Source of the DNA: Polyangiales bacterium
Lineage (GTDB): Bacteria; Myxococcota_A; Polyangia; Polyangiales; Polyangiaceae
Assembly: GCA_038231275.1 (NCBI GenBank)
Contig: JBBRLQ010000025.1
Location: forward strand, 49,973-113,972
Length of the DNA stretch: 64,000 bases
Reading direction: 5' to 3'
Numbering within the stretch: the first letter of the stretch is position 1; each line of letters starts with the position of its first letter. Shown here piece by piece: positions 8,051-34,656 of this stretch. Below the pieces are notes generated by a model, which made no database searches, was not told where the DNA came from, and saw only the letters and a list, made by a program, of their open reading frames with translations. The translations under genes and the position numbers were made by a program.

Positions 8051-9006
8051 GGCCCGGCATGCCCGGCCTGCAATCCACGATGACCTCGACCGACCTCGTC
8101 GCAAAGATCGCGAGCGCCAAAGAAGGCGCGACGGTGGTTCTGCCGCCGGGCCGGCATGACGTCTTCTCGCCGATCGTCCTCACCAAATCGGTGCGCGTGC
8201 GCGGCGCCGACGATGGGTCGACGGTCCTCGACGGTGGCAACGAGGGTGCGATCTTCATGCTCCTCGGCAACCGCAACCGCTACGGCTTCGAGACGCTCAC
8301 GTTCCAGTCGGCGGGCGGGAGGCAAGGCGGCGCGATCGTGGCCCCCAACCGCAACGAGGTGGAGTTCGAGGGCTGCCGCTTCGCCGACAACCACACGACG
8401 GTCGGCGGCGGAGCCGGCGTCCTCTATCACGCGCGCGGCGTCTTCCGTCGCTGCGTCTTCGAGCGCAACGTGTCGATGTGCGGCGGCGCGCTCGGCATCG
8501 GCAAGGACTGCGACCTCGCGCTCGACCGCTGCGTCTTCATCGACAACCGCGCGGACGCTGGCGGCGCGCTCTTCGTCGACGACACCGCGGCGCTCGAAAT
8601 CAAGAGCTGCACCTTCGTCCGCAACGTCGCCATCCAAGAGGCGTGCGGCGCGGCGCTCTACGTCTTCGGCACCGCGCAGGAAGGGCCCAGCGCCTTCATC
8701 GCGAACACCATCTTCACCGAAGAGGGCGCGCTGTCGGGCGACACCGGCGGGGGCATGGTCTTCGTGACGCACTCGGTCGTCCCGAAAGACGCGTTCCCCC
8801 GAAAAGGGTTCAAGGACGTCGGGGGCAACCACGCCGGCGCCGTGGAGCTCGTCGACCTCGGCGGCGGCGCCTTCGCCCTCTCGCGCTCGAGCCCCGCCGC
8901 AGGTATCGCCGATCTCAAACGCCTCGACCCCCGCGCGATCGACATCCGTGGGGAACCGCTGATCCAGGGCAGCCGCGCGAGCCCTGGCGCCCTCGCACCC
9001 GCGTAA
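8047..9006 (+). CDS. Right-handed parallel beta-helix (pectin-lyase-like, GGA/FxxN repeats) protein
   Basis: GATVVLPPG start motif; repeated C.F..N...GGAL/GGAI. GTGA overlap with the upstream stop; ATG 8059 or 8080 are alternative starts. Confidence 0.75.
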   Translation: MRPGMPGLQSTMTSTDLVAKIASAKEGATVVLPPGRHDVFSPIVLTKSVRVRGADDGSTVLDGGNEGAIFMLLGNRNRYGFETLTFQSAGGRQGGAIVAPNRNEVEFEGCRFADNHTTVGGGAGVLYHARGVFRRCVFERNVSMCGGALGIGKDCDLALDRCVFIDNRADAGGALFVDDTAALEIKSCTFVRNVAIQEACGAALYVFGTAQEGPSAFIANTIFTEEGALSGDTGGGMVFVTHSVVPKDAFPRKGFKDVGGNHAGAVELVDLGGGAFALSRSSPAAGIADLKRLDPRAIDIRGEPLIQGSRASPGALAPA

Positions 9007-9154
9007 CTCGGCGGAGAGAGGTAGGACCTCCTGCGCCCCAGTACGGCGATGGCACGTCTGCGGGGGAAAGCCGGCACCGGCGACGTATATCCTTAGTAGA
9101 CCCCTTCTATTTCACGTTCGGGAGACCGCCGCCGCGTACCAATGAGGGAGCCGA

Positions 9155-11851
9155 GTGTCCGTCACGTCCAATAACCTCAAGCTGGCGTTCGCCAATGGGA
9201 ACGAGTCGCTCGACGTGCGGCAGTTCTCCGTGCACGAGGGGATGAACGAGCTCTTCGAGGTGACGCTCCTCGCGATCTCGGACGACGCGGACGTCGACAT
9301 CAACGGCATCGTCGGCAAGGGCGCCGCGTTCAAGCTCGAGACGCCAAACCACCTCGCCGCGCACAGCGTCCGCGTCTGGGCCGGCGTCGTCGCGCAGATG
9401 TCGCAGGTCCACTCGGAGCGCGCGCCGGGCCAGTCGATGTACCAGCTCACGATCGTCCCCGACGTGTGGCGGACGACGCTTCGCAAGAACAACCGCATCT
9501 ACCAGCACAAAGACACGCCGACGATCGTGAAGGAGCTGCTCACGGAGTGGCAGATCACACCCGTCGACAAGCTGAAGAACAAATACGCGTGGCACGAGTA
9601 CGTCGTGCAGTACGGCGAGACCGACTTCGCGTTCATCTCGCGCCTCCTCGAGGACGCGGGCATCTCGTATTATTTCAGCCACGACAAGACGAGCGGCAAG
9701 GGCGCCGACATCACGAAGCTCGTCTTGTCCGACGAGCCGACGAACAAAGAGAACCTGCGGAGCGGCCCGCTCTCCTACGCCGGGCATCAAACGCCGCGCT
9801 TTGGCGCGGACATGGACTTCTGCGCGACGGTCACGCTCACGCAGCGCATGAAGCCCGGCAAGCAGACGATCCGCGACTACAACTTCCGCACGCCCCTCCT
9901 CAAGTCGTACAAGACGTCGAAGTCCGGCAAGAAGGACGAGGACAACTACGAGGAGTACCGGTACCAACCCGGCGGCTTCTGGTGGGACACGAAGAAGCCC
10001 GAGAAGGACGTCGCGGATCGCGATCACGCGCCGAACAACGACGAGCCCGGCGAGGGTCAGGCGCTCGCGAAGCGCACGATGGAAGCAGAGCGCCGCCGGC
10101 GGCTCCTCGTCGCCTTCCACACGAACGCGCTCGATCTCGCGCCTGGCAAGATCGTCGGCATCAACCAGGAGTCGGAGCACAAGAACCATCCGCGCAAGGA
10201 TCTGGCGCCCGACAAGAAGATCCTCCTGCTCGAGACGAACCTCGAGGGCGAGCACAACGGCGACTGGTCGATGACGTCGACCGGCGTCTTCGCCGACGTC
10301 CCGTACCGCCCCGAGCGTAAGACCCCGCGGCCGAAGGTCTACGGCCTGCAGAGCGCGTTCGTGGTCGGACCCCAGGGGCAAGAGGTCTTCACCGACGAGT
10401 ACGGCCGCGTCCGCGTGCAGTTCCACTGGGACCGCGAGGGCAAGTACGACGAGAACAGCTCGTGCTGGGTACGCGTGAGCCACGGCTGGGCGGGCGGCAA
10501 ATTCGGCATGATGGCGATCCCGCGCGTCGGCCACGAGGTGCTCGTCGAGTTCTTCGAAGGCGATCCCGATCACCCGGTCATCGCGGGGCGTGTCTACAAC
10601 GAGACGTCGCCCGTTCCGTGGACACTGCCCGCCGAAGCGACCAAGAGCGGCTGGCGCACCAACTCGCTGCCGTCGTCGCAGCCCGGCTACAACGAGCTCG
10701 TCTTCGAGGACGCGGCGGGCAAGGAAGAGATCCACTTCCAGGCGCAGAAGACGCTCTCGTCGATCATCAAGAACAACCAGTCGTCGAACATCGGCGGCAT
10801 GCGCACCGCGGCGATCAAGACCGCCGACTCTCTCGACGTCGGCGAGACGATGACGGTGCACGTCGGCGAGAACTACACCGAGGGCATCGGCCAGCACTAC
10901 ACGCTGTCGATCGGCAAGACGACGGGGATCGAGATCTCCGATCAGAAGATCGTTCTCTCGACCGGCGACGCCAGCCTTCAGCTCGAGAAGGACAAGATCA
11001 CCATCCAGGCGAAGGGCAACCTCCACTTCCACGCCGGGACCGGGATGGAGATCGGCTCCAAGAAGCCGGGCATGGTCATCCTTCAGGGGGGCAAGAACAT
11101 TCGCGTGAATGACGGCACGGCAGGCCCGAAGCCGACCGTCGCCACGGTCCCGCAACGCGATCCGCCGAAGCCCGCGACCGGCGGTCCGGACGGCACGCCG
11201 CCGGTCATCCCGAGCGGCGGTGGCAAGATCGACCCGCCCGGCAAAGTCGACGACGTCAAGGTCGACATGCCCGAGGAGAAGACCAGCGCGGCAAAGCAAG
11301 ACGAGGCCGCGAAGAAGGGTCCGAAGCCGCCGCCCGCGGCGCCGGACACATGGGTCAAGGACCACCCCGACGACATCAATGCGGCGCTCAAGGCGCAGCG
11401 CGACCTCTTGACCGCGAAACAGACCGAGCTGAAGACCTGGGACGACCCCGCAAAGGCGAATTTCAAGAAGTACTTCGGCACGACCTCCGACGAGGCGAAA
11501 ACGAAGATCTCCGACCGCATCGACAAGGAGCTGGATCTCAACTCCAAAATGACGAAGGACAACTTCCTCCAGGCGGAGAAGCACGAGGACGGGACGTTCG
11601 CGTACGTCTACCCCGACGACGCGACGCACAAGGTCTACCTCGACAGCGCGTTCGAGAGCGCGCCGCTCACCGGCAAGGACTCGAAGGCCGGCACGCTGGG
11701 CCACGAGATGAGCCACTTCAACGACATCGGCGGCACCAAGGACGTGATCTACGGCATCGGCCCCGCCATCAAGCTCGCGAAGAAGGACCCGACCAAGGCG
11801 CTCAATAACGCGGACAGCTTCGAGTACTACCTCGAGGGAGCGAAGTGGTGA
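9155..11851 (+). CDS. vgrG: Evolved VgrG (TssI) with C-terminal M35-like (aspzincin/Lys-specific) zinc metallopeptidase
   Basis: YVVQYGETDFAFISRLLEDAGI, TDEYGRVRVQFHWDR, PRVGHEVLVEFFEGDPD. C-terminus GTLGHEMSHF..IGGTKD..YG...NNADSFEYY. Confidence 0.93.
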   Translation: MSVTSNNLKLAFANGNESLDVRQFSVHEGMNELFEVTLLAISDDADVDINGIVGKGAAFKLETPNHLAAHSVRVWAGVVAQMSQVHSERAPGQSMYQLTIVPDVWRTTLRKNNRIYQHKDTPTIVKELLTEWQITPVDKLKNKYAWHEYVVQYGETDFAFISRLLEDAGISYYFSHDKTSGKGADITKLVLSDEPTNKENLRSGPLSYAGHQTPRFGADMDFCATVTLTQRMKPGKQTIRDYNFRTPLLKSYKTSKSGKKDEDNYEEYRYQPGGFWWDTKKPEKDVADRDHAPNNDEPGEGQALAKRTMEAERRRRLLVAFHTNALDLAPGKIVGINQESEHKNHPRKDLAPDKKILLLETNLEGEHNGDWSMTSTGVFADVPYRPERKTPRPKVYGLQSAFVVGPQGQEVFTDEYGRVRVQFHWDREGKYDENSSCWVRVSHGWAGGKFGMMAIPRVGHEVLVEFFEGDPDHPVIAGRVYNETSPVPWTLPAEATKSGWRTNSLPSSQPGYNELVFEDAAGKEEIHFQAQKTLSSIIKNNQSSNIGGMRTAAIKTADSLDVGETMTVHVGENYTEGIGQHYTLSIGKTTGIEISDQKIVLSTGDASLQLEKDKITIQAKGNLHFHAGTGMEIGSKKPGMVILQGGKNIRVNDGTAGPKPTVATVPQRDPPKPATGGPDGTPPVIPSGGGKIDPPGKVDDVKVDMPEEKTSAAKQDEAAKKGPKPPPAAPDTWVKDHPDDINAALKAQRDLLTAKQTELKTWDDPAKANFKKYFGTTSDEAKTKISDRIDKELDLNSKMTKDNFLQAEKHEDGTFAYVYPDDATHKVYLDSAFESAPLTGKDSKAGTLGHEMSHFNDIGGTKDVIYGIGPAIKLAKKDPTKALNNADSFEYYLEGAKW

Positions 11852-12279
11852 GCGACACGCAGCCCAACGTCCACGTCACGCTCTCGCTGCACTCCTCGGA
11901 GCAGCAGCTGGTGGCCACGCTCGTCTACAAGAACGCCGGGACGAACGTGGCGTTCATCGATCTCATCAACGGGTGCATCAAGGGCGAGCTGAAGAACGAC
12001 GTGTTCGAGATCGTCGCGCAAGTGGCGGGCGCACCGGCGAAGGAGCCGATTCGTTACAAGGGGCCGCGCCTGAAGCGTCGCCAGCCGACCCTCCCGGATT
12101 TTTTGCGCCTCGAGGCGGGCGCGGCCGCCGAAGCCAACGTCCGCCTCGACACGGGCTACGCGTTCCCGGCCGGCCGCGGCACGTACAAGATCGTCTACTC
12201 GTCTGTCCACCAATTCCCGCACAACGACGACTATTGGGAGCTCACGTCGAACGAGCTCACCGTCACGTTTCCGAAGTGA
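11848..12279 (+). CDS. Candidate immunity protein resembling an M35 peptidase pro-domain
   Basis: GTGA overlap with the vgrG stop; motif FEI...IRYKGPRLKRRQP...DFLRLEAG...VRLD.GY.F...GTYKIVY. Confidence 0.75.
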   Translation: MSDTQPNVHVTLSLHSSEQQLVATLVYKNAGTNVAFIDLINGCIKGELKNDVFEIVAQVAGAPAKEPIRYKGPRLKRRQPTLPDFLRLEAGAAAEANVRLDTGYAFPAGRGTYKIVYSSVHQFPHNDDYWELTSNELTVTFPK

Positions 12280-12305
12280 GAGTCCCCGGAGCGAGCACCT
12301 AGAAG

Positions 12306-15095
12306 ATGACCGCCACGTCCAACAACCTGAAGCTCGCGTTCGCCCACGGCGAAGACGCGCTGGACGTGCGTCATTTCTCCATCCACGAAGGGATGAGCGA
12401 GCTCTTCGAGGTGAGCGTCCTCGCCATTTCGGACGACGCGAACATCGACATCGACGATCTCGTCGGCCAAGGCGCCGCGCTGACCATGGTGATGCCGAAC
12501 TACCAGGCGCTCCACAAGAAGCGCGTCTGGACCGGCGTAGTGGCGCACGCGTCGCAGGTGCACGCCGAGGAGCACCCCGGCCAGTCGATGTACCACGTGA
12601 TGATCGTCCCCGACTTCTGGCGGACGACGCTCCGGCGCAACAGCCGCATCTACCAGCACAAGGACGTGCCGACGATCGTGAAGGAGATGCTCCTCGAGTG
12701 GGGGATCACGCCCGACACGAGCAACCTCAAGGCGAAGTACCCGCAGCTCGAGTACTGCGTGCAGTACGGCGAGACCGACTTCGCGTTCATCTCGCGCCTG
12801 CTCGAAGAGGCGGGCATCACCTACTTCTTCAAGCACGACGGGACGAGCGGCACCGGCACGAGCATCACGATCCTGATGCTGAGCGACACGCCGACCGACA
12901 AGGCGAACGAGCGCGGCGGCGTCCTCGCCTACGCGGGGCACCAGACGCCGGCGTTCGGGCGCGACAAGGACTTCTGCTCGACGGTGCTGGTCACGCAGCG
13001 CATGAAGCCGGGCAAATTCACGGTCCGCGACTTCAACTTCCGGACGCCGCTCCTCAAGTCGTACCAGACGGTCCCCTCGGGCAAAGCCGACGAGGACAAG
13101 TACGAGCAGTACGACTACGTCCCCGGCGCGTACTGGATCGATACCAAGCGCATCGAGAAGCCGGTGGCCGACGGCGGCACCGGACCGAACAACGACGAGC
13201 CGGGCGCAGGCAAAGACTTCGTGCAGCACGGCATGGAGGGCGAGCGCCGCCGCCGCCTCCAGGTCGCCTTCAACACGAACGCGACGGATCTGGCGCCCGG
13301 CAAGATCATCGGCATCAACCAGGAGTCGGACTCCAAGGACCATCCGCGCAAGGATCTCGCGCCCGCGAAGAAGATCCTCCTCATCGAGACGACCCTCGAG
13401 GGCGAGGCGACCGGCGAGTGGACGATGACGTGCAGCGGCGTGTTCGCGGAGTTCCCGTACCGCCCCGAGCGCCGGACACCGAAGCCGCGCATCTACGGCG
13501 TGCAGAGCGCGTTCGTCGTCGGCCCCGCCGGGCAAGAGGTCTACACCGACGAGTACGGCCGCGTCCGCGTTCAGTTCCACTGGGACCGCGAAGGCAAGTA
13601 CGACGAGAAGAGCTCGTGCTGGATGCGCGTCAGCCAGGGCTGGGCGGGCGGCAGCTTCGGCATGGTCAACCTGCCGCGCGTCGGTCACGAGGTGATGGTC
13701 GAGTTCTTCGAGGGCGATCCCGATCGTCCGATCGTGACCGGCCGCGCGCACAACGAGACCTCGCCGGTCACGTGGACGCTGCCTGAGCAGCAGACCAAGA
13801 GCGGCTGGCGCACCAACACGCTGCCGTCGTCGGCCAAGCTCGGTTACAACGAGATGGTCTTCGAGGACGCGGCGGCGAACGAGCTCATCCACTTCCAAGC
13901 GGAGAGCCTGCTGTCGTACGTCGTGAAGGACAGCGAGTCGGCGAGCATCGGCAAGGGCCGCTCAGTGACCATCGGCGGTCCCGACAAGAACGGTCAGCCG
14001 GTCGGCCTCGATACGCTCGACGTCGGCAAGACCGTGAGCCTCAACGTCGGCAAGACGTACGTGATCGGCGTCGGCAAGCAGTACTTGCTCTCGCTCGGGC
14101 AGACGACCGGCATCCTCATCACCGACAAGCGCATCGCGATGACGACGGGTCAGGCGAGCGTCACGCTCAACGGCACGAGCATCAACATCATGGCGCTCGG
14201 ATCCATCATCTGCAACGCCGGGGGTGCCGTCGAAATCACGTCGCAGAGCAACCCGATCCTGATTCAGGGCGGGGAGACCGTGCACTTCAACCCCGTGGGG
14301 AGCGGCCCGGCGCCGACCCCTGTGCCGGTACCGCCCGCGCATCCGCCCGCGCCGCCCGACGGCGGACCCGTGGGCACGCCGCCCGTGATCCCGAGCGGTC
14401 GCACGCCGGTGGATCCGCCGGGCCCGATCGAGGACGCGACGCTGGGAGGTCCGCCGCCGCCCAAGCCCTCCGCGGGCGGTGGCTCGGCCGATTCCCGCGA
14501 CAGCAAAGCGGGCACGCCGCCCGCCGCGCCGCCCCCGGCCGCGAAAGACGCCGTCACCGACTTGGGCGGTGGCATGAAGGCCAAGGGCACGCCGGGGTTC
14601 GTGTCGGCGGTGAAGGATCGCCTGACGACGATCGGAAAGACCACGACCGGCAAGGCGCTCCTCGGCGACATCGCGGCGAGCGGGCACACGGTCACGTTCG
14701 AGGAAACGGGCGACGACAACTCCTACTGCAGCCCGGTCGACCCCGTCGCGGCCGGCGGCAAGGGCAAGCCGACCAGCGTGGACGGGGTGGTCGGGACCGG
14801 GAAGGGCTCCGACTCCACCCTCGAGCTCAACCCCAATTTCACGATGCCGAACCCCGCAGGGAAACCCGAGCCGAACGACGGCGTCTTGTTCCACGAGCTC
14901 GTTCACGCCGACGACAATGCTCGCGGTCAGCGCGACCGGACGCTTGATCCGGTATGGGGCAATCTGGCCGAGAAGCACGCCCTGACGGCGGAAAACGGCT
15001 ACCTGAAAGAAATCGGCTACGGCTTTCACAACATCAATCACGAGGGGGGCTGGGCGCCGGACGCTCCCCCGCCCGCCCCGGTGAAAAAACCATGA
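12306..15095 (+). CDS. vgrG: Evolved VgrG with C-terminal M91-like zinc metallopeptidase
   Basis: Same VgrG core motifs. C-terminus L..I..TTTGKALL..I...G.GSDS...NP...LFHELVHA....G...E. Confidence 0.92.
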   Translation: MTATSNNLKLAFAHGEDALDVRHFSIHEGMSELFEVSVLAISDDANIDIDDLVGQGAALTMVMPNYQALHKKRVWTGVVAHASQVHAEEHPGQSMYHVMIVPDFWRTTLRRNSRIYQHKDVPTIVKEMLLEWGITPDTSNLKAKYPQLEYCVQYGETDFAFISRLLEEAGITYFFKHDGTSGTGTSITILMLSDTPTDKANERGGVLAYAGHQTPAFGRDKDFCSTVLVTQRMKPGKFTVRDFNFRTPLLKSYQTVPSGKADEDKYEQYDYVPGAYWIDTKRIEKPVADGGTGPNNDEPGAGKDFVQHGMEGERRRRLQVAFNTNATDLAPGKIIGINQESDSKDHPRKDLAPAKKILLIETTLEGEATGEWTMTCSGVFAEFPYRPERRTPKPRIYGVQSAFVVGPAGQEVYTDEYGRVRVQFHWDREGKYDEKSSCWMRVSQGWAGGSFGMVNLPRVGHEVMVEFFEGDPDRPIVTGRAHNETSPVTWTLPEQQTKSGWRTNTLPSSAKLGYNEMVFEDAAANELIHFQAESLLSYVVKDSESASIGKGRSVTIGGPDKNGQPVGLDTLDVGKTVSLNVGKTYVIGVGKQYLLSLGQTTGILITDKRIAMTTGQASVTLNGTSINIMALGSIICNAGGAVEITSQSNPILIQGGETVHFNPVGSGPAPTPVPVPPAHPPAPPDGGPVGTPPVIPSGRTPVDPPGPIEDATLGGPPPPKPSAGGGSADSRDSKAGTPPAAPPPAAKDAVTDLGGGMKAKGTPGFVSAVKDRLTTIGKTTTGKALLGDIAASGHTVTFEETGDDNSYCSPVDPVAAGGKGKPTSVDGVVGTGKGSDSTLELNPNFTMPNPAGKPEPNDGVLFHELVHADDNARGQRDRTLDPVWGNLAEKHALTAENGYLKEIGYGFHNINHEGGWAPDAPPPAPVKKP

Positions 15096-15742
15096 GCGGC
15101 ACTACGTCCGCGCGACCGCTGAGGATGACGGCGCTCCCAGGCTCAGCCAGCGGAGTGCAGCTCGCGGCCGATGTCTCGCTCGGCGACAGTGAGCTCAATC
15201 TCCACGCGCGGGTCGAGAACAAGGGGCGTGCTGCCATCTACGTCCTCCACGAGCTGTGGAGGATCGGGCCCGACAGGAACCCCGTGCGCGATCCCGAGCG
15301 CGCGTATCGCTCGCTCGCGCGCGACACTCTGCGCGTGCTGCTCGGAGTTCCGACGCTGCCCATCGACCGAACCGTACGTCTTCATATGAAGCCCTTCGCG
15401 GCGCGCGTCGAGCCGGGCGGTGCCCTCGATCTGCGCCTCGGGCTTCCGCTACCGACGCGCGAGTACAACCCCTACTACACCGACAAGCCCGAGACCGAGT
15501 ACCACGACGTAACCGCGAACGCGGTGGAGCTCTACGTCCAGCTCGTCACTCAGGGCGACGGCATCCACGCGCAGCCTGCCGGTTGGCCGTGGGCCGCGGG
15601 GCTCTACGACGTCGGTCCCGCGTTCGAGCTCGGCGGCCAGCATCGAGGGGAGTTCGTCGCCGCAGCCACGCAGCTTCCGGGATTCCGCGCGCTGCGGCGC
15701 GTCGGGGATTTCGCCCGCATGTCGAGAGAGGCAACGCCATGA
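15092..15742 (+). CDS. Candidate immunity protein for VgrG2
   Basis: ATGA overlap with the vgrG2 stop; 216 aa, beta-rich (L.L..RVEN.G...IYV). Confidence 0.7.
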   Translation: MSGTTSARPLRMTALPGSASGVQLAADVSLGDSELNLHARVENKGRAAIYVLHELWRIGPDRNPVRDPERAYRSLARDTLRVLLGVPTLPIDRTVRLHMKPFAARVEPGGALDLRLGLPLPTREYNPYYTDKPETEYHDVTANAVELYVQLVTQGDGIHAQPAGWPWAAGLYDVGPAFELGGQHRGEFVAAATQLPGFRALRRVGDFARMSREATP

Positions 15743-15770
15743 AGACCTCCATCGGTCGCGGAGGGCTGCG

Positions 15771-18533
15771 ATGAGCGCCACGACGAACAACCTCAAGCTC
15801 ACGTTCGCGAACGGCAACGACTCGCTCGACGTCCGCCATTTCTCCGCCCACGAGTCGATAAACGATCTCTTCGAGCTGAGCATCCTCGCGATCTCGGACG
15901 ATCCGGACATCGACATCACCGGCCTCGTCGGCAAGGGCGCCATCTTCAAGCTCGAGACGCCGAACCACCGTGCGCTCTATCCGACGCGCGTGTGGGGCGG
16001 CGTCGTCGCGCACATGTCCCAGGTGCACGCGCAGCCCCCGCCGGGCCAGTCGATGTACCACCTCATGATCGTCCCCGATCTTTGGCGGACGACGCTGCGC
16101 GTGAACAATCGCATCTACGAGCACAAGGACACGCCGACGATCGTCCGCGAAGTCCTTTTTGAGTGGAAGATCGACGTCGTCAACAAGCTCAAGGACAAGT
16201 ACGCGCTGCACGAGTACGTCGTGCAGTACGGCGAGACTGACTACGACTTCGTTAGCCGGCTCCTCGAGGACGCCGGCATCACCTACTTCTTCCATCAGGA
16301 CGCCGACAGCGGCAAGGGCCAGGCGATCACGAAGCTCGTCCTCACCGACAAGCCGACCGACAAGGAGTTCGAGCGCCCCGGCATCCTCGCCTACGCGCAC
16401 CACACGACCCCGCGCTTCGGCGCCGACCCCGACTACTGCACGACGGTCACGCTCACGCAGCGGAACAAGCCCGGCAAGTTCATCCAAAGGGACTTCAACT
16501 TCCGCACGCCGCTTCTGAAGTCGAAGATCGAGTTCGGTTCGGGCGATCCGATCGAGGACAAATACGAGCAGTACGACTACCTGCCGGGCGCCTTCTGGTG
16601 GGACACGAAGAAGCCCGAGAAGGACGTCGCCGACGTCGACAACGCGCCCAACAACGACGAGCAGGGTGAGGGCCCCAAGCTCAGTAGGCGCATCCTCGAG
16701 GCCGAGCGTCGCCGGCGCATCCTCGTCTCGTTCCACACGAACGCCACCGATCTCGCACCCGGAAAGATTGTCGGCGTCAATCAGGACTCGCCGCACAAGA
16801 ACCACCCGCGCGCGGATCTGGCGCCCGACAAGAAGATCCTCCTCATCGAGACCCACATCGAGGGGCAGCACAACGGCGAGTGGACGATGACCGCCAACGG
16901 GGTCTTCGCCGCCGAGCCGTACCGCCCCGAGCGAAAGACGCCGAAGCCGCGCATCTACGGCATGCAGAGCGCGTTCGTCGTCGGCCCGCCCGGGCAGGAG
17001 ATCTACACCGACGAATACGGCCGCGTGCGCGTGCAGTTCCACTGGGACCGCGAGCACAAGTACGACAAGGCGTCGTCGTGTTGGGTCCGCGTCAGCCAGA
17101 ATTGGGCGGGCGGCAGCTTCGGCATGATGAACATCCCCCGCGTCGGGCACGAGGTGCTCATCGGCTTCTACGAGGGAGATCCCGATCGCCCGGTCATCAT
17201 GGGCCGCGTCTACAACGAGACCTCGCCGGTGCCGTGGACGCTGCCGGACAACGCCACCAAGAGCGGCTGGCGCAGCAACTCGCTGCCGACCAAGACCAAG
17301 CTCGGCTACAACGAGCTCTCGTTCGAGGACGCCGCCGGCAAAGAAGAGATCCACCTCCAGGCCGAAAACGACCTGTCGTACGTCGTCAAGAGCACCGAGA
17401 CGATCAACATCGGCAACTCACGCTCCGCCAAGGTCGGCAAGACGGAGAAGCTCGACGTCTTCAAGTTCAAGGCGTCGCACATCGGCGAGTCGGAGACCAT
17501 CGGCGTCGGTGAGCACTTCGTGCTGTCGGTCGTCACGGACACTGGGTACGAGATCAAGGACAAGTCGATCGCGTCATCGACCGGCAAGGAGCAGGCGAGC
17601 CTCACCCTCGTCGGGGGAGACATCTCGTTCAACGCCGCGGCGCAGCTCGTCATGCGCGCGGGCAAGGGCATCCAGATCACGTCGTCGGGCGGCGACATCA
17701 AGGTGCAAGGCGGCTCGCAGGTCCGCGTGAACGATCACGAGGAGGGCGGCGACCCGAAGCTAGACCACGTGCCGCCGTACGATCCGCCGGCCGCTCCGAA
17801 GGGCGGACCCAACGGCACCAAGCCGGTCATCCCGAGCGGGCAAGGCTCGTTCGACAAGCCGGGGCAGCTCGAGGACGTCAACACGGATCCCAAGCCGCCG
17901 CCGGAGACCACTGCGAAACCAGGGGCGCCCGGGGACGCGGCGGCGGCCGGCGCGGCGGCGCCCGCAGCAGCCGCGGACGGGAAGAAGACCATTTCGTTTC
18001 CGGACAACGTCTGCAAGCAGTTCGGACAGCAGATGAAGGACAGCTTCCCCGGCGGGAAGAGCCAGGAGCACGGCGGAATTCTCGTCACAGACGCCGATGG
18101 GAACATGCAGCTACGAAACGCCGGGGCGGGTCTGGACCCGAAAGGCGGATCGTGGTCGCCGAACCGCACCGTGGAGAAGGGCGACACGACCCTCGGCCTC
18201 TTCCACACCCACCCGTACGACAAGAGCGAGGGCGGCTACTCCAACGTCTCGTTCAGCGGTCAGGACGCGGCGCTCGTGGCCAACTCGTCTCCCGAGACCA
18301 TGACCGTCGTAAGGAGCGGGGATGGCCTCTTCGTCCTCAAGCCTACGGCGAAGACTCCGCACGACATCGACTACGAAAAGACGAACAACGATACGAACCG
18401 GCGGATTCAAGAGCTCGTCACCGGCGGGATGGCCTTCGATGCCGCGAGCCGCAAGGCGACCTTGGAGAACGCGAACAAGCTGAACATGGAATACTATGAG
18501 GGGCAGAACTGTACCGCGACGCAGGTCAATTAG
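15771..18533 (+). CDS. vgrG: Evolved VgrG with C-terminal JAB/MPN-like (JAMM motif) domain
   Basis: VgrG core motifs. C-terminus EHGGIL...GLFHTHPY...SFSGQD fits E...HxH...S..D. Confidence 0.92.
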   Translation: MSATTNNLKLTFANGNDSLDVRHFSAHESINDLFELSILAISDDPDIDITGLVGKGAIFKLETPNHRALYPTRVWGGVVAHMSQVHAQPPPGQSMYHLMIVPDLWRTTLRVNNRIYEHKDTPTIVREVLFEWKIDVVNKLKDKYALHEYVVQYGETDYDFVSRLLEDAGITYFFHQDADSGKGQAITKLVLTDKPTDKEFERPGILAYAHHTTPRFGADPDYCTTVTLTQRNKPGKFIQRDFNFRTPLLKSKIEFGSGDPIEDKYEQYDYLPGAFWWDTKKPEKDVADVDNAPNNDEQGEGPKLSRRILEAERRRRILVSFHTNATDLAPGKIVGVNQDSPHKNHPRADLAPDKKILLIETHIEGQHNGEWTMTANGVFAAEPYRPERKTPKPRIYGMQSAFVVGPPGQEIYTDEYGRVRVQFHWDREHKYDKASSCWVRVSQNWAGGSFGMMNIPRVGHEVLIGFYEGDPDRPVIMGRVYNETSPVPWTLPDNATKSGWRSNSLPTKTKLGYNELSFEDAAGKEEIHLQAENDLSYVVKSTETINIGNSRSAKVGKTEKLDVFKFKASHIGESETIGVGEHFVLSVVTDTGYEIKDKSIASSTGKEQASLTLVGGDISFNAAAQLVMRAGKGIQITSSGGDIKVQGGSQVRVNDHEEGGDPKLDHVPPYDPPAAPKGGPNGTKPVIPSGQGSFDKPGQLEDVNTDPKPPPETTAKPGAPGDAAAAGAAAPAAAADGKKTISFPDNVCKQFGQQMKDSFPGGKSQEHGGILVTDADGNMQLRNAGAGLDPKGGSWSPNRTVEKGDTTLGLFHTHPYDKSEGGYSNVSFSGQDAALVANSSPETMTVVRSGDGLFVLKPTAKTPHDIDYEKTNNDTNRRIQELVTGGMAFDAASRKATLENANKLNMEYYEGQNCTATQVN

Positions 18534-19224
18534 CCTCCTCGCCGCTGTGATTGCGTCGGCCGCATGTGCCGCCGGCGCGCCGAGCCCCCCCACCGCGGGC
18601 GAAGGACCGAAGATGCTCCCCAACGACATCACGAAACTGGAGCTTGTCACACGGCGGGGCAACTTCCGCGAGGTGACGGAGATCTCACCGAAGGAGCTCG
18701 TCCTTGTCGCGGAGGACGTCGACGACGGCGCCCTTCCCGTCGTACGGACTACCTGGAAGGGGGACTACCTCCACGGCCTTCCCGCAACGCTAAAGGACCT
18801 GAAGAGCGCCCGCGAGGAGACCGACCCGGAGTACTGGCACGAGCTGAAGTTGACGTTCTCCGCCGAACATCCCGTGGGCTTGCTATGGGGGAGCGGCTCC
18901 GAGGACGCGGGGCACCGCGCGTTCCGAGAGGCGATCGCAACCGTGGCCGGCCTCCGGTACAAGGAGGCCGAACGCCTTCTCGAGTCGGGGCGCAAGGCTA
19001 GCGCGGCCGGTAAGTTCGAGGATGCCTCCCTGGAGTTCAAGCGGGGCATTCGGGTCCTTGGCAACCTCTATTGGGAGCCGAAATCGCTGGACCACACCGG
19101 CCAAAAGCTCGTCGCGGCCTACGCCCTCGCCCGCGACGGCCACAAGGACGTCGCCGCCTCGACGCAAGAGCGAGTGCTCGAGACGCGCCTGAAGGGATAC
19201 CTGGCACGTCAGCTCCCGCACTGA
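18496..19224 (+). CDS. Candidate immunity protein for VgrG3, probable lipoprotein/exported
   Basis: Overlaps the vgrG3 3' end. Basic N-terminus, hydrophobic stretch, then ASAAC; helical C-terminus. Start uncertain. Confidence 0.65.
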   Translation: MRGRTVPRRRSISLLAAVIASAACAAGAPSPPTAGEGPKMLPNDITKLELVTRRGNFREVTEISPKELVLVAEDVDDGALPVVRTTWKGDYLHGLPATLKDLKSAREETDPEYWHELKLTFSAEHPVGLLWGSGSEDAGHRAFREAIATVAGLRYKEAERLLESGRKASAAGKFEDASLEFKRGIRVLGNLYWEPKSLDHTGQKLVAAYALARDGHKDVAASTQERVLETRLKGYLARQLPH

Positions 19225-19252: not shown

Positions 19253-20251
19253 ATGCCCTTCGCTAACGCCACCCCCTTCGCGGCCCTCGACGTCCCGATG
19301 CTCGATCGCACCGGGCGCGAGATGGTCGTCGTCATCGTCAAGGCGACGTTCACGCTGGGCAAGGGGGCCAAAGAGGGCAAGCTCGTCCCCGCCGACGAGC
19401 CCGCGCCGGTTCGCGTCACCGACGTGCTGCGCGATCCCAAGAACGCCGAGCGATCGAGCGCGCTTTACCCGAGCGATCTGTGCCTCGAGAAGCGCGGTAC
19501 CGATCTCGTCATCGTCGGCAAGGCGGTGTCGAAGAAGAAGGTCACCTACGTCGACGTTGGCATCTCGGCGAAGGCCAAGACCGTCACCTTGCGCGTGCAC
19601 GGCATGCGCGAGTATTTCCGCGGGCTGATGGAGGTCGCGATCAGCGCACCGGTGCCGTTCGAGGAGATGCCCATCGAATGGGAGCGCGCGTACGGCGGGG
19701 CGAGCGAGGACTTCGGCGTCGTCGAGCAGCGCAATCCCGCCGGCGTGGGCGTGGCGAAGAGCGACAAGACGCTCGTAGGCAAGCTCGCACCGCAGATCGA
19801 GCACCCCGGCGCGCCGCACAAGACGTCGAAGGACAAGCACCCGCCCGCCGGCATCGGCTCGATCCTTCCGCATTGGTCGCCGCGCCTCGAGCGCGCGGGG
19901 ACGTTCGACGCGGAGTGGAAGAAGACGAAGATGCCGCTCATGCCGCCGGACTTCGACGTGCGGCACTACAACGTCGCGGCGGCGCCTCTGGTGTTCGAGC
20001 AAGGGCTCGCGCCGGGAGATCCCATTTCGATCTTGGGGATGAGCCCCGATTTGTTCGCCTTCGCCCTCCCTGCCCTGCCGATCTTCATCGAGGCGCGGTA
20101 CGACGAGAAGACCGAGACCGCGCGGCCGCAGGTGGACACCATCTTGATCGAGCCATCAAAAGGGCAAATCGAGCTCGTCGTTCGCAAGGCGTTCCCGGTC
20201 GGGCGCGGACGGTCGGCGCTGCGCGAGCTTCGGGCCGACGTCGATGCCTGA
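19253..20251 (+). CDS. DUF2169 family T6SS adaptor
   Basis: N.TPF...D..GRE..VVIVKATF; SD....K.GTD; WERAYGG; NP.GVG; W.PR...AGTFD..W; P.DFD...YN.A; DTILIEP. Confidence 0.9.
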   Translation: MPFANATPFAALDVPMLDRTGREMVVVIVKATFTLGKGAKEGKLVPADEPAPVRVTDVLRDPKNAERSSALYPSDLCLEKRGTDLVIVGKAVSKKKVTYVDVGISAKAKTVTLRVHGMREYFRGLMEVAISAPVPFEEMPIEWERAYGGASEDFGVVEQRNPAGVGVAKSDKTLVGKLAPQIEHPGAPHKTSKDKHPPAGIGSILPHWSPRLERAGTFDAEWKKTKMPLMPPDFDVRHYNVAAAPLVFEQGLAPGDPISILGMSPDLFAFALPALPIFIEARYDEKTETARPQVDTILIEPSKGQIELVVRKAFPVGRGRSALRELRADVDA

Positions 20252-21329: not shown

Positions 21330-21368
21330 CTGGGCATTGTTCCGGGGGCTTCGGCTATCATGGGGGCG

Positions 21369-24300
21369 ATGGCTGATCCGCAGCTCGCGCGGACAATCGA
21401 CCTTCTGACGACCCAGCTTTTGATCCACCCGAACGATCCGCACAAGCGGTTCCAGCTCGGGATGGCCTATCGAAACAGCGGGAACCTTCAGGAGGCGATC
21501 AAGGCGTACAAACGCGCGATCACCGCGAAGCCGGATCACGCCGAGGCGCACTACAACCTCGGCGTCACCTACAAGATGGCCGGCGATTGGGCGAACGCCA
21601 CCGACGCGTGGAAGGAGTCGGTGCGTCACAAGCCCGAGCACGCCGAGGGGCACGCGCAGCTCGCGCTCGGGTTGACGCACCTCGGCAAGGGCGACGAGGC
21701 GATCGACGAGTACGCGCGGACGTTGGAGCTGAACCCCGAGCACGTCGCGGCGCGGCGCGAGATCGGCCTCCTCCAGTACCGTCAGGGAAAGTACGCGGAG
21801 GCGGCGGAGCGCTTATACAAGGCCGCGGAAGCGGAGCCGGAGAACGCGGAGCTCTTCTTGCGCCTCGGGCAGTCGTACAACCGGCTCAAGCGCTACGCGC
21901 CCGCGAAGGCGGCGCTCAAAGAAGCGCTCATCTTGAACGAGGCGTCGCCCGAGACGTACAAGGCGCTCGTCGAGGCCTACGCGCGAACCGGCGAGCACAA
22001 CGACGCCGTGATCGCGGCGCGGAAGGCGGTCCAGCACGATCCCAACGACGCCGAATCGCACGCCGAGCTCGCGAAGAACCTCGCGGCGCTGGAGCGCGAC
22101 AAGGAGGCGATCGTCGCCATCAAGCGCGCGCTGGAGCTGACGCCGGAGGATCCGCAGCTTCACGTGGCGCTCGGCGCGTGCTTGATGCGCCTCAAGGATC
22201 CGACCGCGGCGGAGGCGGCGTACCATGAGGCCGTTCGTCTCGCGCCCGACTCGGCGCCGCCGCACGCGGGCCTCGGCACCGCGATGAACGCGCTCGAGAG
22301 GTGGACCGACGCGCTCGACGAGCTGGAGCTGGCGACCAAGATCGACGCGACCTCGGCCCTCGCGTTCACGAGCCTCGGCCTGACGTACAAGAAGCTGGGG
22401 CGCGTGCCGGAGGCGGTCGCCGCGCTCCATCGCGCGGGAGAGCTCGATCCGGCGGACGTCGATCTGCGGTACTCGATCGCGCTGCACCACATCGAGCTCG
22501 GGCAGAACACCGAGGCGATGGACGCCCTCGCGAAGGTCCTCGAGCTGAAGAAGGACCACGCCGACGCGCTGATGAAGCTCGGCGAGATGCGCGTAGCCGC
22601 CGAGCAATGGGCGGAGGCGATCGATCCGCTCAAGATGGCGGTGAAAATCCGCGCGGAGTTCGGGCACGCGTACCAGCTCTTGGCTACGGCGCTGCGCAAG
22701 CTCGGCCGGCACGCGGAGGCGATCGAAGCGTACAAGCACGCGGCGACGAGCGCGCCCAACGACTTCGACGCGGTGCTCGAGATGGGGCGCAGCCAGGCCG
22801 CCGCCGGGAACGACAAAGAGGCGGCGGCGACCTTCGAGCGCGCGCTCGTGATGAAGGCCGATCAGCCGGACGCGCTCTTCGAGCTCGGAATGGCCTGCGC
22901 GCGCATGCGCGATCACGCCGACGCAATCGACGCCCTCGAGCGGGTCGTCAAGATTCGGCCGACGGACCAGCCCGCCGTGTACCAACTCGGCATCGAGTAC
23001 CACGCCCTCCACCGCCACGAAGACGCGGCCAACGCGATTGAGCGGTCGCTCAAGCTGAAGCCCGGAGACTTCGACGCGCAGCGCCTCCTCGGAATGATCC
23101 AATCCGACGCAGGCAAGGATCAGCTCGCGGTCGACGCGTTCGAGAAGGCCCACTGGCTGAAGCAGAACGACGCCGAGATAAGGCGGCGCACGGGCCGCAG
23201 CCTCCTCAAGCTGGGGCGCACGCGCGAGGCGGTGCAGGCGCTCGAGGACGCGGCGCGCATCGATCCGAACGACGCCGAGACGCACTTCACCCTGGGCCTG
23301 GCGATGAAGGAGCTGAACCGCCCGGCCGACGCGAAGGCGCGCTTCGAGAAGACCGTCGCGCTGGCGCCGACGCGCGCGGAGGCGCACATCGAGCTGGGGA
23401 AATTGCTCGACCACTTCGGCGAGACCGCGCGCGCGACCGAGGCGTTCCGCGAGGCGACGCGCCTGAGTCCCGAAGACGCCGACGCCTACGAGCTCGCCGG
23501 ACACGCGTTCATGAAGATCTCGTCATACGTGGAGGCGGCGGCTGCGTTCAAGCACCTCACGCGCCTGCGCCCCGCCGACGCGGTCTCGCTCTTCGATCTC
23601 GGCAACGCGCTCACGCACACCGAGCAGGATCACGAGGCGGTCGACGCGTTCGAATACGCGGCGCGGCAGCGGCCGAACCACACCGCGACGCACGGCGAGC
23701 TCGCGCGGGCGTACGCGCGGGTCGGGCGCGTCGAGAACGCCATCGATTCGTACCGAAGGGTCCTCGCGCTAGAGCCCGGGACGACGTACGCGAGCCTCGA
23801 GCTCGCGGCGCTCCTCGAGAGCGTGGGCCTCCACCAGGACCGCGTCTCGGCGCTCCTCGCGAGCGTGAAGGCGTCGCCGCACGACGTCCAGGCGCGGCTC
23901 AAGCTGGGCATCGCCTACGACGAGCTCGGCCAGGTGCCCGAGGCGATCGCCGCGCTCGAGGCGGTCGTCTCACGCGATCCGTCGGTCGTCGACGCGCAAC
24001 GCCGCCTGGCGCGCCTGCACAAGAACTCCGGCCAGTACGAAAAAGCGATCCTGGCGTGCGAAGCGCTCTTGCGCCTCGGCGCAGAGGACGCCGAGATGCT
24101 CGTGGATCTCGCGGAGAGCCGCCGCCAGCTCAAAGACAATAACCGCGCCCTCGACGCCCTCCATCAGGCGGTGAAGCTCTCGCCCGATCACGTGCCGGCG
24201 TACCGCCTCCTCGCGGACATCTACGTCGAGCTGGGGATGCACGCGGAGGCCGCGCAGGCGTTCGAGAACGTCCTGCGCCGCGAAAAGACCGACATCCCGG

Positions 24301-33171: not shown

Positions 33172-34656
33172 TCAGGCCTTATCGAGCTTGCCGACGAGGG
33201 AGAGGGTGAAGAACGCGCCCATGTACTTGAAGTGCGGGCGCACCTTCATGTCGACTTTGTACCAGCCGGCGTTCCCCTCGACGTCCTCGACGGTGATCGA
33301 CGCGGCGCGGAGCGGGCGCTTACCCCTGACCTCCGCCGATGCGTTGTCCATGTCGACGACGTACTGCATGATCCACTTGTTCAGATCGTGCTCGAGATCG
33401 CCGCGCTCCTTCGTGGAGCCGAGGGCCTCGCGCTGGAGCACTTTGATGTAGTGCGCGAGACGGCTGATGATGAACATGTACGGCATCTGGGTGCCGAGGC
33501 GGTAGTTGAGCTCCGCTTCGCGTCCCTCCGCCGATTGGCCGAAATACTTCGGCTTTTGGCAGCTGTTCGCGGAGAAGAACGCGGCGTTGTCGGAGTCCTT
33601 GCGGAAGGTGAGGGCGATGAACCCCTCCTCCGAGAGCTCGAACTCGCGACGCTCGCTGATCATGACCTCGGTCGGGATCTTCGTCTGGATCTCGCCCATC
33701 GCCTCGTACTGGTGGAGCGGCAAGTCCTCGACCGCGCCGCCCGCCTGGGGTCCGATGATGTTCGGGCACCAGCGGTACTTGGCGAAGCTGTCGGCGATGC
33801 GCGTCGCGAACGCGTACGTGCAGTTTCCCCAGAGGTAGGTCTCGTGCTGGCCGACCGTCTCCTCTTGGTAGTTGAACGAGCGGACGGGCACCGTGGCCGG
33901 GCCGAACGGGATGCGCAGCAGGAACCGCGGCATCAGGAGGCCGACGTAGCGTGAGTCCTCGGACTCGCGGAAGGATTGCCACTTGGCGTACTGAGGGCCC
34001 TCGAAGATGGCCTTCAGGTCCTTCAAGTTCGGCAGCTTCATGAAGTCTTTGTCGCCGAAAAACTGCGGTGCCGCGGCGGCGAAGAACGGCGCGTGCGACA
34101 TGGCAGAGACGGCGGCGCACTTCTGGAGGAGCAGGATGTCCTGCGGGCCGGGGCCGAACTCGTAGTTCGCGAAGATGGCGCCATACGGCTTGCCGCCGAA
34201 CTGCCCGTATTCCGCGGTGTAGACGGTCTTGTAGAGACCGCTCTTCATGATCTCGGGCGCGTCCTCGAAGTCGTTCAGCAAGTCTTCCTTGCTGCAGTTG
34301 AGGAGCTCGCAGTGGATGTTCTCGCGGAAATCAGTGCGGTCGACCGTGAACTTCAGGCCGCGCCACGCGCTCTCGAGACGCTGGAAGTCCGGGTGGTGGA
34401 GGATGGCGTCGAGCTGCTTCGAGATCTTCCCGTCGATCTCCGCGATGAGCGCGTCGGCGAAGGCGCGATCGACCTTCTCGCGGCGACCCGGTGCGAGGAG
34501 CTCCGAGATGAACGCCTGAACTCCCTTGCGGGTGACGTCGTATCCTTCATCGGTCGGCTTCAGCTGGGTTTCGCTGAGGATGTCGTCGAGCAGCGAGGTC
34601 TCGGTGGTGGTCTCTGCGGCGGCGGCTGCACCAGGCGCGGCTTTCGTGTCGGCCAT
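33172..34656 (-). CDS. tssC: T6SS contractile sheath large subunit TssC (VipB)
   Basis: ILHHPDFQRLESAWRGL, EYGQFGG.PYG, PRFLLR.P, YLWGN, SRLAHYIKVLQRE. Confidence 0.98.
   Translation of the reverse strand: MADTKAAPGAAAAAETTTETSLLDDILSETQLKPTDEGYDVTRKGVQAFISELLAPGRREKVDRAFADALIAEIDGKISKQLDAILHHPDFQRLESAWRGLKFTVDRTDFRENIHCELLNCSKEDLLNDFEDAPEIMKSGLYKTVYTAEYGQFGGKPYGAIFANYEFGPGPQDILLLQKCAAVSAMSHAPFFAAAAPQFFGDKDFMKLPNLKDLKAIFEGPQYAKWQSFRESEDSRYVGLLMPRFLLRIPFGPATVPVRSFNYQEETVGQHETYLWGNCTYAFATRIADSFAKYRWCPNIIGPQAGGAVEDLPLHQYEAMGEIQTKIPTEVMISERREFELSEEGFIALTFRKDSDNAAFFSANSCQKPKYFGQSAEGREAELNYRLGTQMPYMFIISRLAHYIKVLQREALGSTKERGDLEHDLNKWIMQYVVDMDNASAEVRGKRPLRAASITVEDVEGNAGWYKVDMKVRPHFKYMGAFFTLSLVGKLDKA

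Follow-up and report, generated by a model that had tools for sequence, protein, structure and literature searches.

A VgrG-borne M35 peptidase toxin of a Polyangiales bacterium and its candidate immunity protein, a predicted free-standing homologue of M35 zymogen pro-domains

The window analysed here is a whole stretch of 64,000 nucleotides from a Polyangiales bacterium (GenBank assembly GCA_038231275.1, contig JBBRLQ010000025.1, positions 49,973 to 113,972 of the forward strand), in which a type VI secretion system (T6SS) spike gene, vgrG1, whose product ends in an M35 peptidase domain, is followed directly by a small open reading frame (ORF) encoding a candidate immunity protein that resembles the pro-domain of M35 zymogens (Table 1). 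The ORF is open in frame +1 from a GTG at 11845 or a GTG at 11848 to a TGA at 12277-12279 (144 or 143 amino acids), with just 12 further codons open upstream. Its start overlaps the vgrG1 stop codon (TGA, 11849-11851) by 7 nucleotides in the first case and by 4 (GTGA) in the second, which bears out the coupling claimed in an earlier reading made from the letters alone (the sequence-only reading). The GTG at 11848 is the likelier start because the Shine-Dalgarno-like GAGGGAG within the 3' end of vgrG1 lies 7 nucleotides from it (4 nucleotides from the GTG at 11845); residues are numbered here from the GTG at 11845. A scan of positions 8800 to 19200 found no promoter-like site and no terminator above the level of shuffled sequences.

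The C-terminal domain of VgrG1 is matched by Pfam Aspzincin_M35 (PF14521; amino acids 765-893, E 7.5e-29, 101.4 bits against a cut-off of 30) and by four distinct PDB sequences in all, including the catalytic part of AsaP1 of Aeromonas salmonicida (residues 208-338, E 3.6e-25, the best match), Lys-N (1g12, E 3.7e-22) and deuterolysin (1eb6, E 1e-4). A passage of PMC12924839 defines the aspzincin motif as HEXXH plus GTXDXXYG; in VgrG1 the corresponding motifs are HEMSH and GGTKDVIYG, and the T, D, Y and G of the latter are invariant in alignment A2. According to a passage of a review (PMC11985622), E157 of Lys-N sets the choice between Lys and Arg at P1', and, as judged from the alignment to 1g12, the VgrG1 domain retains the acidic S1' residues of Lys-specific enzymes.

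An exhaustive phmmer search of 1.84 billion representative sequences returned 141 homologues of the ORF at E <= 1e-3, including 39 with E <= 1e-10, most being stand-alone proteins of 130-190 amino acids; the ORF is a real gene, with homologues far beyond chance. Alignment A1 was built from the ORF and 72 free-standing homologues among P0001-P0080, excluding seven proteins longer than 200 amino acids and one 77-amino-acid fragment, and contains no M35-fused sequence. Nine residues (N30, F54, Y71, G73, K77, L101, Y105, F107 and Y118) are each conserved in at least 90% of its 73 sequences. The motif quoted in the sequence-only reading is present in the ORF (F54.I56 ... Y71.G73...K77R78..P81...D85F86..L89..G92 ... 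L101...Y105.F107 ... G112.Y114.I116.Y118) and is beyond chance, since its residues are the conserved columns of the family. The ORF has no match in Pfam at E <= 1 or in NCBIfam at E <= 1, and the annotations of 10 members in 9 clusters amount to one 'hypothetical protein' and otherwise no name. The profile confirmed 138 of the 141 representatives; an N-terminal extension is absent in 82 of these, hydrophobic in 33 and of a different type in 11, and the remaining 12 are long proteins. The ORF protein is of the type without N-terminal extension and has no signal peptide.

A few of the homologues have other architectures. Three proteins (P0067, P0102 and P0134) carry a tandem pair of pro-like domains without a peptidase domain, with an N-terminus that is lipoprotein-like in P0067 and hydrophobic in P0134, and may be two-headed inhibitors; the 147-row tree mentioned below includes each of the paired domains. 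P0002, of 7077 amino acids, aligns with the ORF in 28 partial matches (E 3.7e-31), most of which cover residues 15-59, and is probably made of a repeated immunoglobulin-like (Ig-like) module that shares the first strands.

The relation of this family to M35 zymogens was found by profile and by predicted fold. As a single sequence the ORF matched AsaP1 weakly in the PDB (E 0.16); with the A1 profile, the sole match in the whole PDB was residues 31-149 of the AsaP1 precursor, aligned to profile positions 14-133 of 137 (E 6e-17). The top single-sequence phmmer match in the PDB, the repeat protein BurrH (E 2e-6), is the sum of 8-9 weak repeated stretches and was rejected as a repeat-sum artefact because the ORF model is all-beta and the A1 profile does not find BurrH. 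Single-sequence AlphaFold prediction was unusable (predicted local distance difference test score, pLDDT, 33.9), but with A1 as input AlphaFold (AF2) predicted a nine-strand beta-sandwich at pLDDT 95.1. All four Foldseek matches of this model at E <= 1e-3 are AsaP1 (E 5e-7 to 9e-6), and VIA-align, comparing the predicted ORF model with the solved AsaP1 structure, placed it on AsaP1 residues 23-153 with Z scores of 14.8, 14.5 and 14.3 (root-mean-square deviation, rmsd, 1.9, 1.8 and 1.7 A over 120, 119 and 114 residues). The next VIA-align entry was the intracellular proteinase inhibitor of B. subtilis (3ISY, Z 9.3), followed by generic sandwiches at Z 8.4 or below. The resemblance to an M35 pro-domain that the sequence-only reading had proposed was thus recovered twice, by a profile that led to the AsaP1 propeptide alone and by a modelled fold that scored Z 14.8 on AsaP1 against 9.3 for the next fold. 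By sequence profile and predicted structure, the ORF protein is homologous to the N-terminal pro-domain of AsaP1-type M35 zymogens.

Two of the 15 longer matches that were scanned, P0040 and P0122, carry Aspzincin_M35 C-terminal to the ORF-like region. P0040, a lipoprotein of 346 amino acids named peptidyl-Lys metalloendopeptidase in its source, is a single-chain prepro-M35 that is 35% identical to the ORF (residues 38-142) and 34% identical to the VgrG1 C-terminus (residues 186-344). A search for longer homologous proteins found none among 7996 candidates, which is weak evidence, and a search with the P0040 region matched P0040 alone. The ORF carries Y71, G73, K77, R78 and P81 of the Y-x-G-x3-K-R-x2-P loop; it is not fused behind a signal peptide to the N-terminus of a catalytic domain, and it is a free-standing homologue rather than a propeptide because it is a separate downstream gene without a signal peptide. 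A profile search with filters off found no pro-region in the VgrG1 frame even at E <= 10, in agreement with the earlier claim that the VgrG-fused protease lacks one, and when the whole genome was searched in six frames with the profile, there were two pro-like matches only, the ORF and one on another contig.

A complex was modelled from VgrG1 residues 730-898 and the ORF in three runs, with 3 controls. The score was 0.89 in all three runs and 0.13 for the best control; in calibration the mark was reached by 116 of 157 solved complexes and by 2 of 215 mismatched pairs. The runs shared at least 96% of contacts, with a pLDDT of at least 91 for the partner. On the ORF side the modelled interface comprises residues 51-52, 70-81, 84, 121, 123 and 128-130. 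Modelled K77 contacts VgrG1 residues 814-817, T847, H850, E851, A886 and D887, with E890 also in the interface list, and ORF residues 73-78 run antiparallel to VgrG1 residues 819-814 (edge strand T814-Y819). The sequence-only reading had proposed to check whether this loop enters the M35 active site, and in these models the K77-R78 loop does so. The equivalent of Lys77 is conserved in 102 of 103 domains, namely in 59 of 60 fused domains and in all 43 free ones (the 13 beside zymogens, the 6 beside toxins, the 21 representatives and the 3 others), and the Arg that follows it is kept in 99 of 103.

The pairing of a pro-less M35 protein with a downstream pro-like gene recurs. In the same genome, the second pro-like gene (contig C3) lies directly after a pro-less M35 protein of 270 amino acids (L002, 1914-2726, - strand; PF14521, E 2.2e-24), which is not fused to VgrG but has the catalytic domain most closely related to that of VgrG1 (support 96). 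A scan of 401 genomes of the phylum, the source genome included, gave 10 pro-like matches in 9 genomes, none of them among the 29 genomes of the same family. Six of the 10 immediately follow a pro-less M35 ORF (the window, L002, L006, L007, L008 and L009) and one is fused as a prepro-M35 (L005). PF14521 was found in 13 of the 401 genomes, and its 10 matches at E <= 1e-16 are these same seven together with L013, L016 and L017. Two of the pro-less toxins (L006 55-1413 and L008 13-1398) carry an N-terminal eCIS_core domain (PF13699); the toxin-immunity module therefore also travels with extracellular contractile injection systems (eCIS).

M35 genes were surveyed more widely with the degenerate pattern AGT..HE.SH in the species genome collection, which gave at least 125 stretches, possibly overlapping with the phylum scan, from which 80 loci were fetched. 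Twelve had no M35 domain, and the rest yielded 69 distinct M35 domains at E <= 1e-10. In 56 of these 69 genes, from Lysobacter, Aeromonas, Pseudoalteromonas, Archangium and others, the A1 profile finds an in-frame N-terminal pro-domain (E 4e-10 to 6e-23). Eighteen of the 56 have a same-strand pro-like match downstream, which in six cases is the next tandem prepro-M35 gene and in 12 a free-standing ORF (L025, L028, L051, L061, L075, L083, L084, L085, L089, L095, L099 and L101, of which L075 and L099 are Aeromonas loci); a thirteenth free ORF was found by inspection (L091). Tandem paralogous prepro-M35 pairs were seen in the Lysobacter group (L045/L046, L048, L053/L054, L068/L069 and L103/L104). 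As judged by eye, all 13 free ORFs have a hydrophobic or lipobox N-terminus and the Y.G...KR..P loop, often with a Cys pair, and their products may be periplasmic guardians. The other 13 M35 domains are pro-less, with a pro-like ORF downstream in four cases (L027, L067, L076 and L098). L064 and L076 are cut by contig ends; in L027 and L088 a pro-like frame immediately precedes the M35 frame, perhaps as the result of a frameshift or because a gene has been split.

Quick, unrooted IQ-TREE trees with Shimodaira-Hasegawa-like approximate likelihood-ratio test (SH-aLRT) support were built for both partners. The pro-like tree (103 rows, with 21 of the 138 confirmed representatives and identical segments merged) contains clade A (support 98; 25 rows), with the window ORF, L002, the 21 representatives and the fused P0040 and P0122; clade B (99), with four immunity proteins of HELSH-type toxins; clade C (93), with 12 of the 13 zymogen-linked free proteins; and clade D (86), with 52 fused pro-domains. 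Support for the connections between these clades is weak (59), and an earlier tree of 147 rows was star-like and left the three fused rows ungrouped. In the catalytic tree (77 rows) the toxins of the window and of L002 form a group (96) that P0040 and P0122 join (97), while the HELSH toxins form a clade of their own (100) and the classical zymogens another (94). Matching clades in the two trees therefore support co-evolution of the partners.

According to the sequence-only reading, a zymogen was split into a catalytic toxin and a propeptide antitoxin in reversed gene order. Both halves group with the fused P0040 and P0122 (98 for the pro-like and 97 for the catalytic part), but this proposed history is not established. 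About 13 of the 56 prepro-M35 genes already have a free pro-like gene downstream, so that a catalytic part followed by a pro-like one needs no reversal. The trees, by themselves, are compatible with fission and with fusion alike. A split zymogen with reversed order is accordingly one of two possible origins. The other, which would entail the same function and to which we allow somewhat less than an even chance, is that the pair derives from an operon of a prepro-M35 gene and a free pro-like inhibitor gene, the N-terminal pro-domain having been lost when the catalytic part joined VgrG. Free pro-like ORFs follow 12 of the 56 prepro-M35 genes, or 13 with L091 (two in Aeromonas), in the required order, and the zymogen-linked free inhibitors are old paralogues, since 12 of the 13 fall into a single clade that spans taxa (support 93). 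The window ORF, however, lies outside that clade, among the free representatives and the two fused proteins, and the VgrG1 catalytic domain likewise groups with those of P0040 and P0122; the weak support between clades and the lack of a root also tell against deriving the pair from such an operon.

Homology of sequence and predicted fold, genetic coupling, recurrent pairing and matching trees were all observed. The sequence, the predicted fold, the modelled interface and the comparison of genomes give good support to the interpretation of the ORF product as a free-standing M35 pro-domain antitoxin. The protein would act like a zymogen pro-domain, but in trans: its beta-sandwich would cover the active-site cleft of the M35 domain, the loop Y71-x-G73-x3-K77-R78-x2-P81 would pair antiparallel with the peptidase edge strand T814-Y819, and Lys77 would insert into the Lys-specific S1' pocket beside the zinc site. 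We infer binding and inhibition, as well as the site of action and the role in immunity. The ORF probably encodes a cytoplasmic inhibitor of the C-terminal M35 domain of VgrG1, protecting the producer and sister cells that are struck by the spike.

Several points weigh against this interpretation. The complex score of 0.89 may stem from the memory that the model has of the solved AsaP1 zymogen, and because that zymogen was solved with a similar arrangement, the complex model shows likeness rather than binding of the ORF copy. A Lys that occupies S1' in the orientation of a substrate might be cut instead of inhibiting. In one clade (support 99) of four proteins (P0068, P0116, P0110 and P0120), the pro-like domain follows fn3 and no M35 domain is present; the pro-like fold is therefore not exclusive to M35 partners. 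In the phylum scan, three of the 10 pro-like matches have no M35 gene within about 1.5 kb (L003, L004 and L010), and a pro-like neighbour is missing from three of the 10 strong M35 matches (L013, L016 and L017). The clade B immunity genes encode signal peptides, which their toxins lack, and the window ORF has none. The literature consulted contains no experiment on the ORF protein or on any member of its family.

Alternatively, the ORF protein might be mainly a folding helper that performs the role of an intramolecular chaperone in trans for the VgrG-borne M35 domain, with protection as a by-product. Its homology to a pro-domain fits such a role, translational coupling would give equal amounts of the two proteins, and pro-peptides are stated in general terms, in a passage of PMC11985622, to affect peptidase expression and folding. 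Nothing separates this role from inhibition, with which it is compatible, but the most conserved feature of the family is the K-R loop that is modelled into the active site, which therefore favours inhibition, and the distribution of signal peptides in clade B therefore fits protection from an incoming toxin better than co-folding; a mainly chaperone-like protein is accordingly considered unlikely. That the ORF is an unrelated neighbour of vgrG1 with a generic Ig-like resemblance is highly improbable: many beta-sandwich domains do score Z 7-9 against the model and the pro-like domain also occurs after fn3 domains, but the profile match (E 6e-17) is restricted to AsaP1, on which Z is 14.8 against 9.3 for the next fold, and the signature loop is common to both proteins and adjacency to M35 recurs.

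Beyond the window, inhibition in trans by a pro-like protein may characterize a whole family. It is fairly probable that a broad family of M35-propeptide-like inhibitors, unmatched by Pfam or NCBIfam, comprises both periplasmic lipoproteins encoded after secreted zymogens (including those of AsaP1 type in Aeromonas) and immunity proteins for pro-less M35 toxins on T6SS spikes or as eCIS cargo, with one conserved Lys as bait for S1', the toxin-immunity cassettes being zymogen modules re-used for warfare. If so, the immunity protein would be a detached copy of the safety catch of a zymogen, which would explain how immunity to M35 toxins, a class only now emerging among T6SS effectors, works and where it came from. 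Comprising at least 141 representative clusters that neither Pfam nor NCBIfam matches, the family could help to locate M35 toxins in genomes. It would also predict specific natural protein inhibitors of Lys-N-type peptidases, enzymes that are used in proteomics, and it points to an inhibitor gene, so far overlooked, beside well-studied secreted M35 proteases.

The vgrG1 pair belongs to a window with a full T6SS core cluster (TssF, TssG, TssC, TssA, TagF, TssM, TssK, TssJ, ClpV and an FHA protein). VgrG1 is the first of three tandem evolved VgrGs (9155-18533) with differing C-terminal domains, and small ORFs come after both VgrG1 and VgrG2. The one after VgrG2, of 216 amino acids (15092-15742), overlaps the stop codon of the M91-bearing vgrG2, has no Pfam or NCBIfam match and is a candidate immunity gene. 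The VgrG array and the T6SS core genes are separated by a DUF2169 protein (19253-20251) and then a tetratricopeptide repeat (TPR) protein of 1735 amino acids (21360-26567). A single frame of 631 amino acids (51068-52963) matches both VipA (TssB) and VipB (TssC), in addition to the separate TssC at 33172-34656, and may be a fused or second sheath gene.

Table 1. Coordinates of the vgrG1-ORF pair, of motifs within it and of the two following vgrG genes
Feature	Position	Strand	Basis
VgrG1, evolved T6SS spike of 898 amino acids: VgrG core, Pro-rich linker, C-terminal M35 toxin domain	9155..11851	+	Pfam Phage_GPD, Phage_base_V, Gp5_trimer_C and Aspzincin_M35; N-terminus like the two following VgrGs
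M35 (aspzincin) peptidase domain of VgrG1, amino acids 730-898, no pro-domain	11342..11848	+	PDB matches, PF14521
HEMSH zinc-binding and catalytic motif, amino acids 850-854 (H850, E851, H854)	11702..11716	+	Read from sequence
GGTKDVIYG aspzincin motif, amino acids 859-867, with D863 as third zinc ligand according to the family rule	11729..11755	+	Read from sequence
D887 to E890, aligned with D154 and E157 of Grifola Lys-N 1g12; putative S1' pocket	11813..11824	+	Alignment to 1g12
Shine-Dalgarno-like GAGGGAG within the 3' end of vgrG1, ahead of the ORF	11834..11840	+	Read from sequence; inferred role
Free-standing M35-propeptide-like beta-sandwich protein (the ORF), candidate immunity protein, no signal peptide	11848..12279	+	Homologues, profile, predicted fold, complex model
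Loop R70-P81 (RYKGPRLKRRQP), predicted active-site plug; Lys77 codon 12073-12075	12052..12087	+	Interface residues 70-81; K/R conservation
VgrG2 with Peptidase_M91 (E 1.8e-12)	12306-15095		Pfam
VgrG3, C-terminal part of about 230 amino acids without Pfam match	15771-18533		Pfam

Propeptide-analogue inhibitors (for example in SpeB-Spi) and T6SS effector-immunity pairs are both already known. That the immunity protein of an M35 toxin is a pro-domain homologue was not found stated in the literature consulted, including PMC3482391 (its first 300,000 characters), PMC8213781, PMC9846239 and the 2026 preprint 10.64898/2026.09.28.754971, with supplements outside this coverage. That preprint describes, in its main text, T6EC12, an Aspzincin_M35 T6SS effector of Methylocaldum szegediense that is toxic in the cytoplasm and in the periplasm of E. 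coli and is rescued by a neighbouring gene. Like VgrG1 and the ORF, T6EC12 and T6IC12 combine an M35 T6SS toxin with a neutralizing neighbour, which the preprint models over the catalytic cleft. Unlike VgrG1, T6EC12 is a cargo effector that is not fused to VgrG, and T6IC12 is compared here through its description. The residue numbers in the preprint text suggest that T6EC12 has HELSH with D seven residues on, which would fit the second (HELSH) toxin clade. The words propeptide, prodomain and pro-domain are absent from its main text, to which this count is confined. In Pseudomonas aeruginosa, VgrG2b likewise has a C-terminal metallopeptidase toxin domain, labelled M35 in a passage of PMC10673891, with an immunity gene, PA0261, alongside (Wood et al. 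2019). Its immunity protein is 'totally different' in the words of the same preprint, and the VgrG2b chain was not among the PDB sequence matches of the VgrG1 M35 domain at E <= 0.01 or at E <= 0.001.

Other small inhibitors offer more distant parallels. Staphostatins are described in a passage of PMC2873492 as guards encoded by the producer against its own protease. Like the ORF protein, staphostatins and 3ISY are small beta-rich inhibitors of a protease of the same producer, and 3ISY is the second-best structural match of the ORF model (Z 9.3, rmsd 3.5 A over 113 residues, within the generic beta-sandwich range), but both act on other protease classes and have no detectable sequence relation to the ORF. 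In SpeB-Spi of Streptococcus pyogenes (Kagawa et al. 2005), the protease gene adjoins the gene of a specific inhibitor that is called 'a propeptide analogue' in a passage of PMC2873492, with protection of the producer as its proposed role; the arrangement is that of vgrG1 and the ORF, but SpeB is a C10 cysteine protease of unrelated fold that is secreted as a zymogen and not injected.

The comparison with AsaP1 of Aeromonas salmonicida involves the pro-domain itself. The structure paper of AsaP1 (2X3A, 2X3B and 2X3C) speaks in its title of intramolecular propeptide inhibition (Bogdanovic et al. 2016, FEBS Lett 590:3280). The AsaP1 propeptide and the ORF protein, the latter as modelled, have in common the beta-sandwich (Z 14.8, 23-25% identity), the Y-x-G-x3-K-R-x2-P loop and an M35 partner. 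A Lys of the AsaP1 propeptide reportedly fills S1', as Lys77 would in VgrG1. The AsaP1 propeptide, however, is fused to the N-terminus of its peptidase, secreted with it and removed on activation, whereas the ORF is a separate downstream gene without a signal peptide and its putative partner is a T6SS spike toxin.

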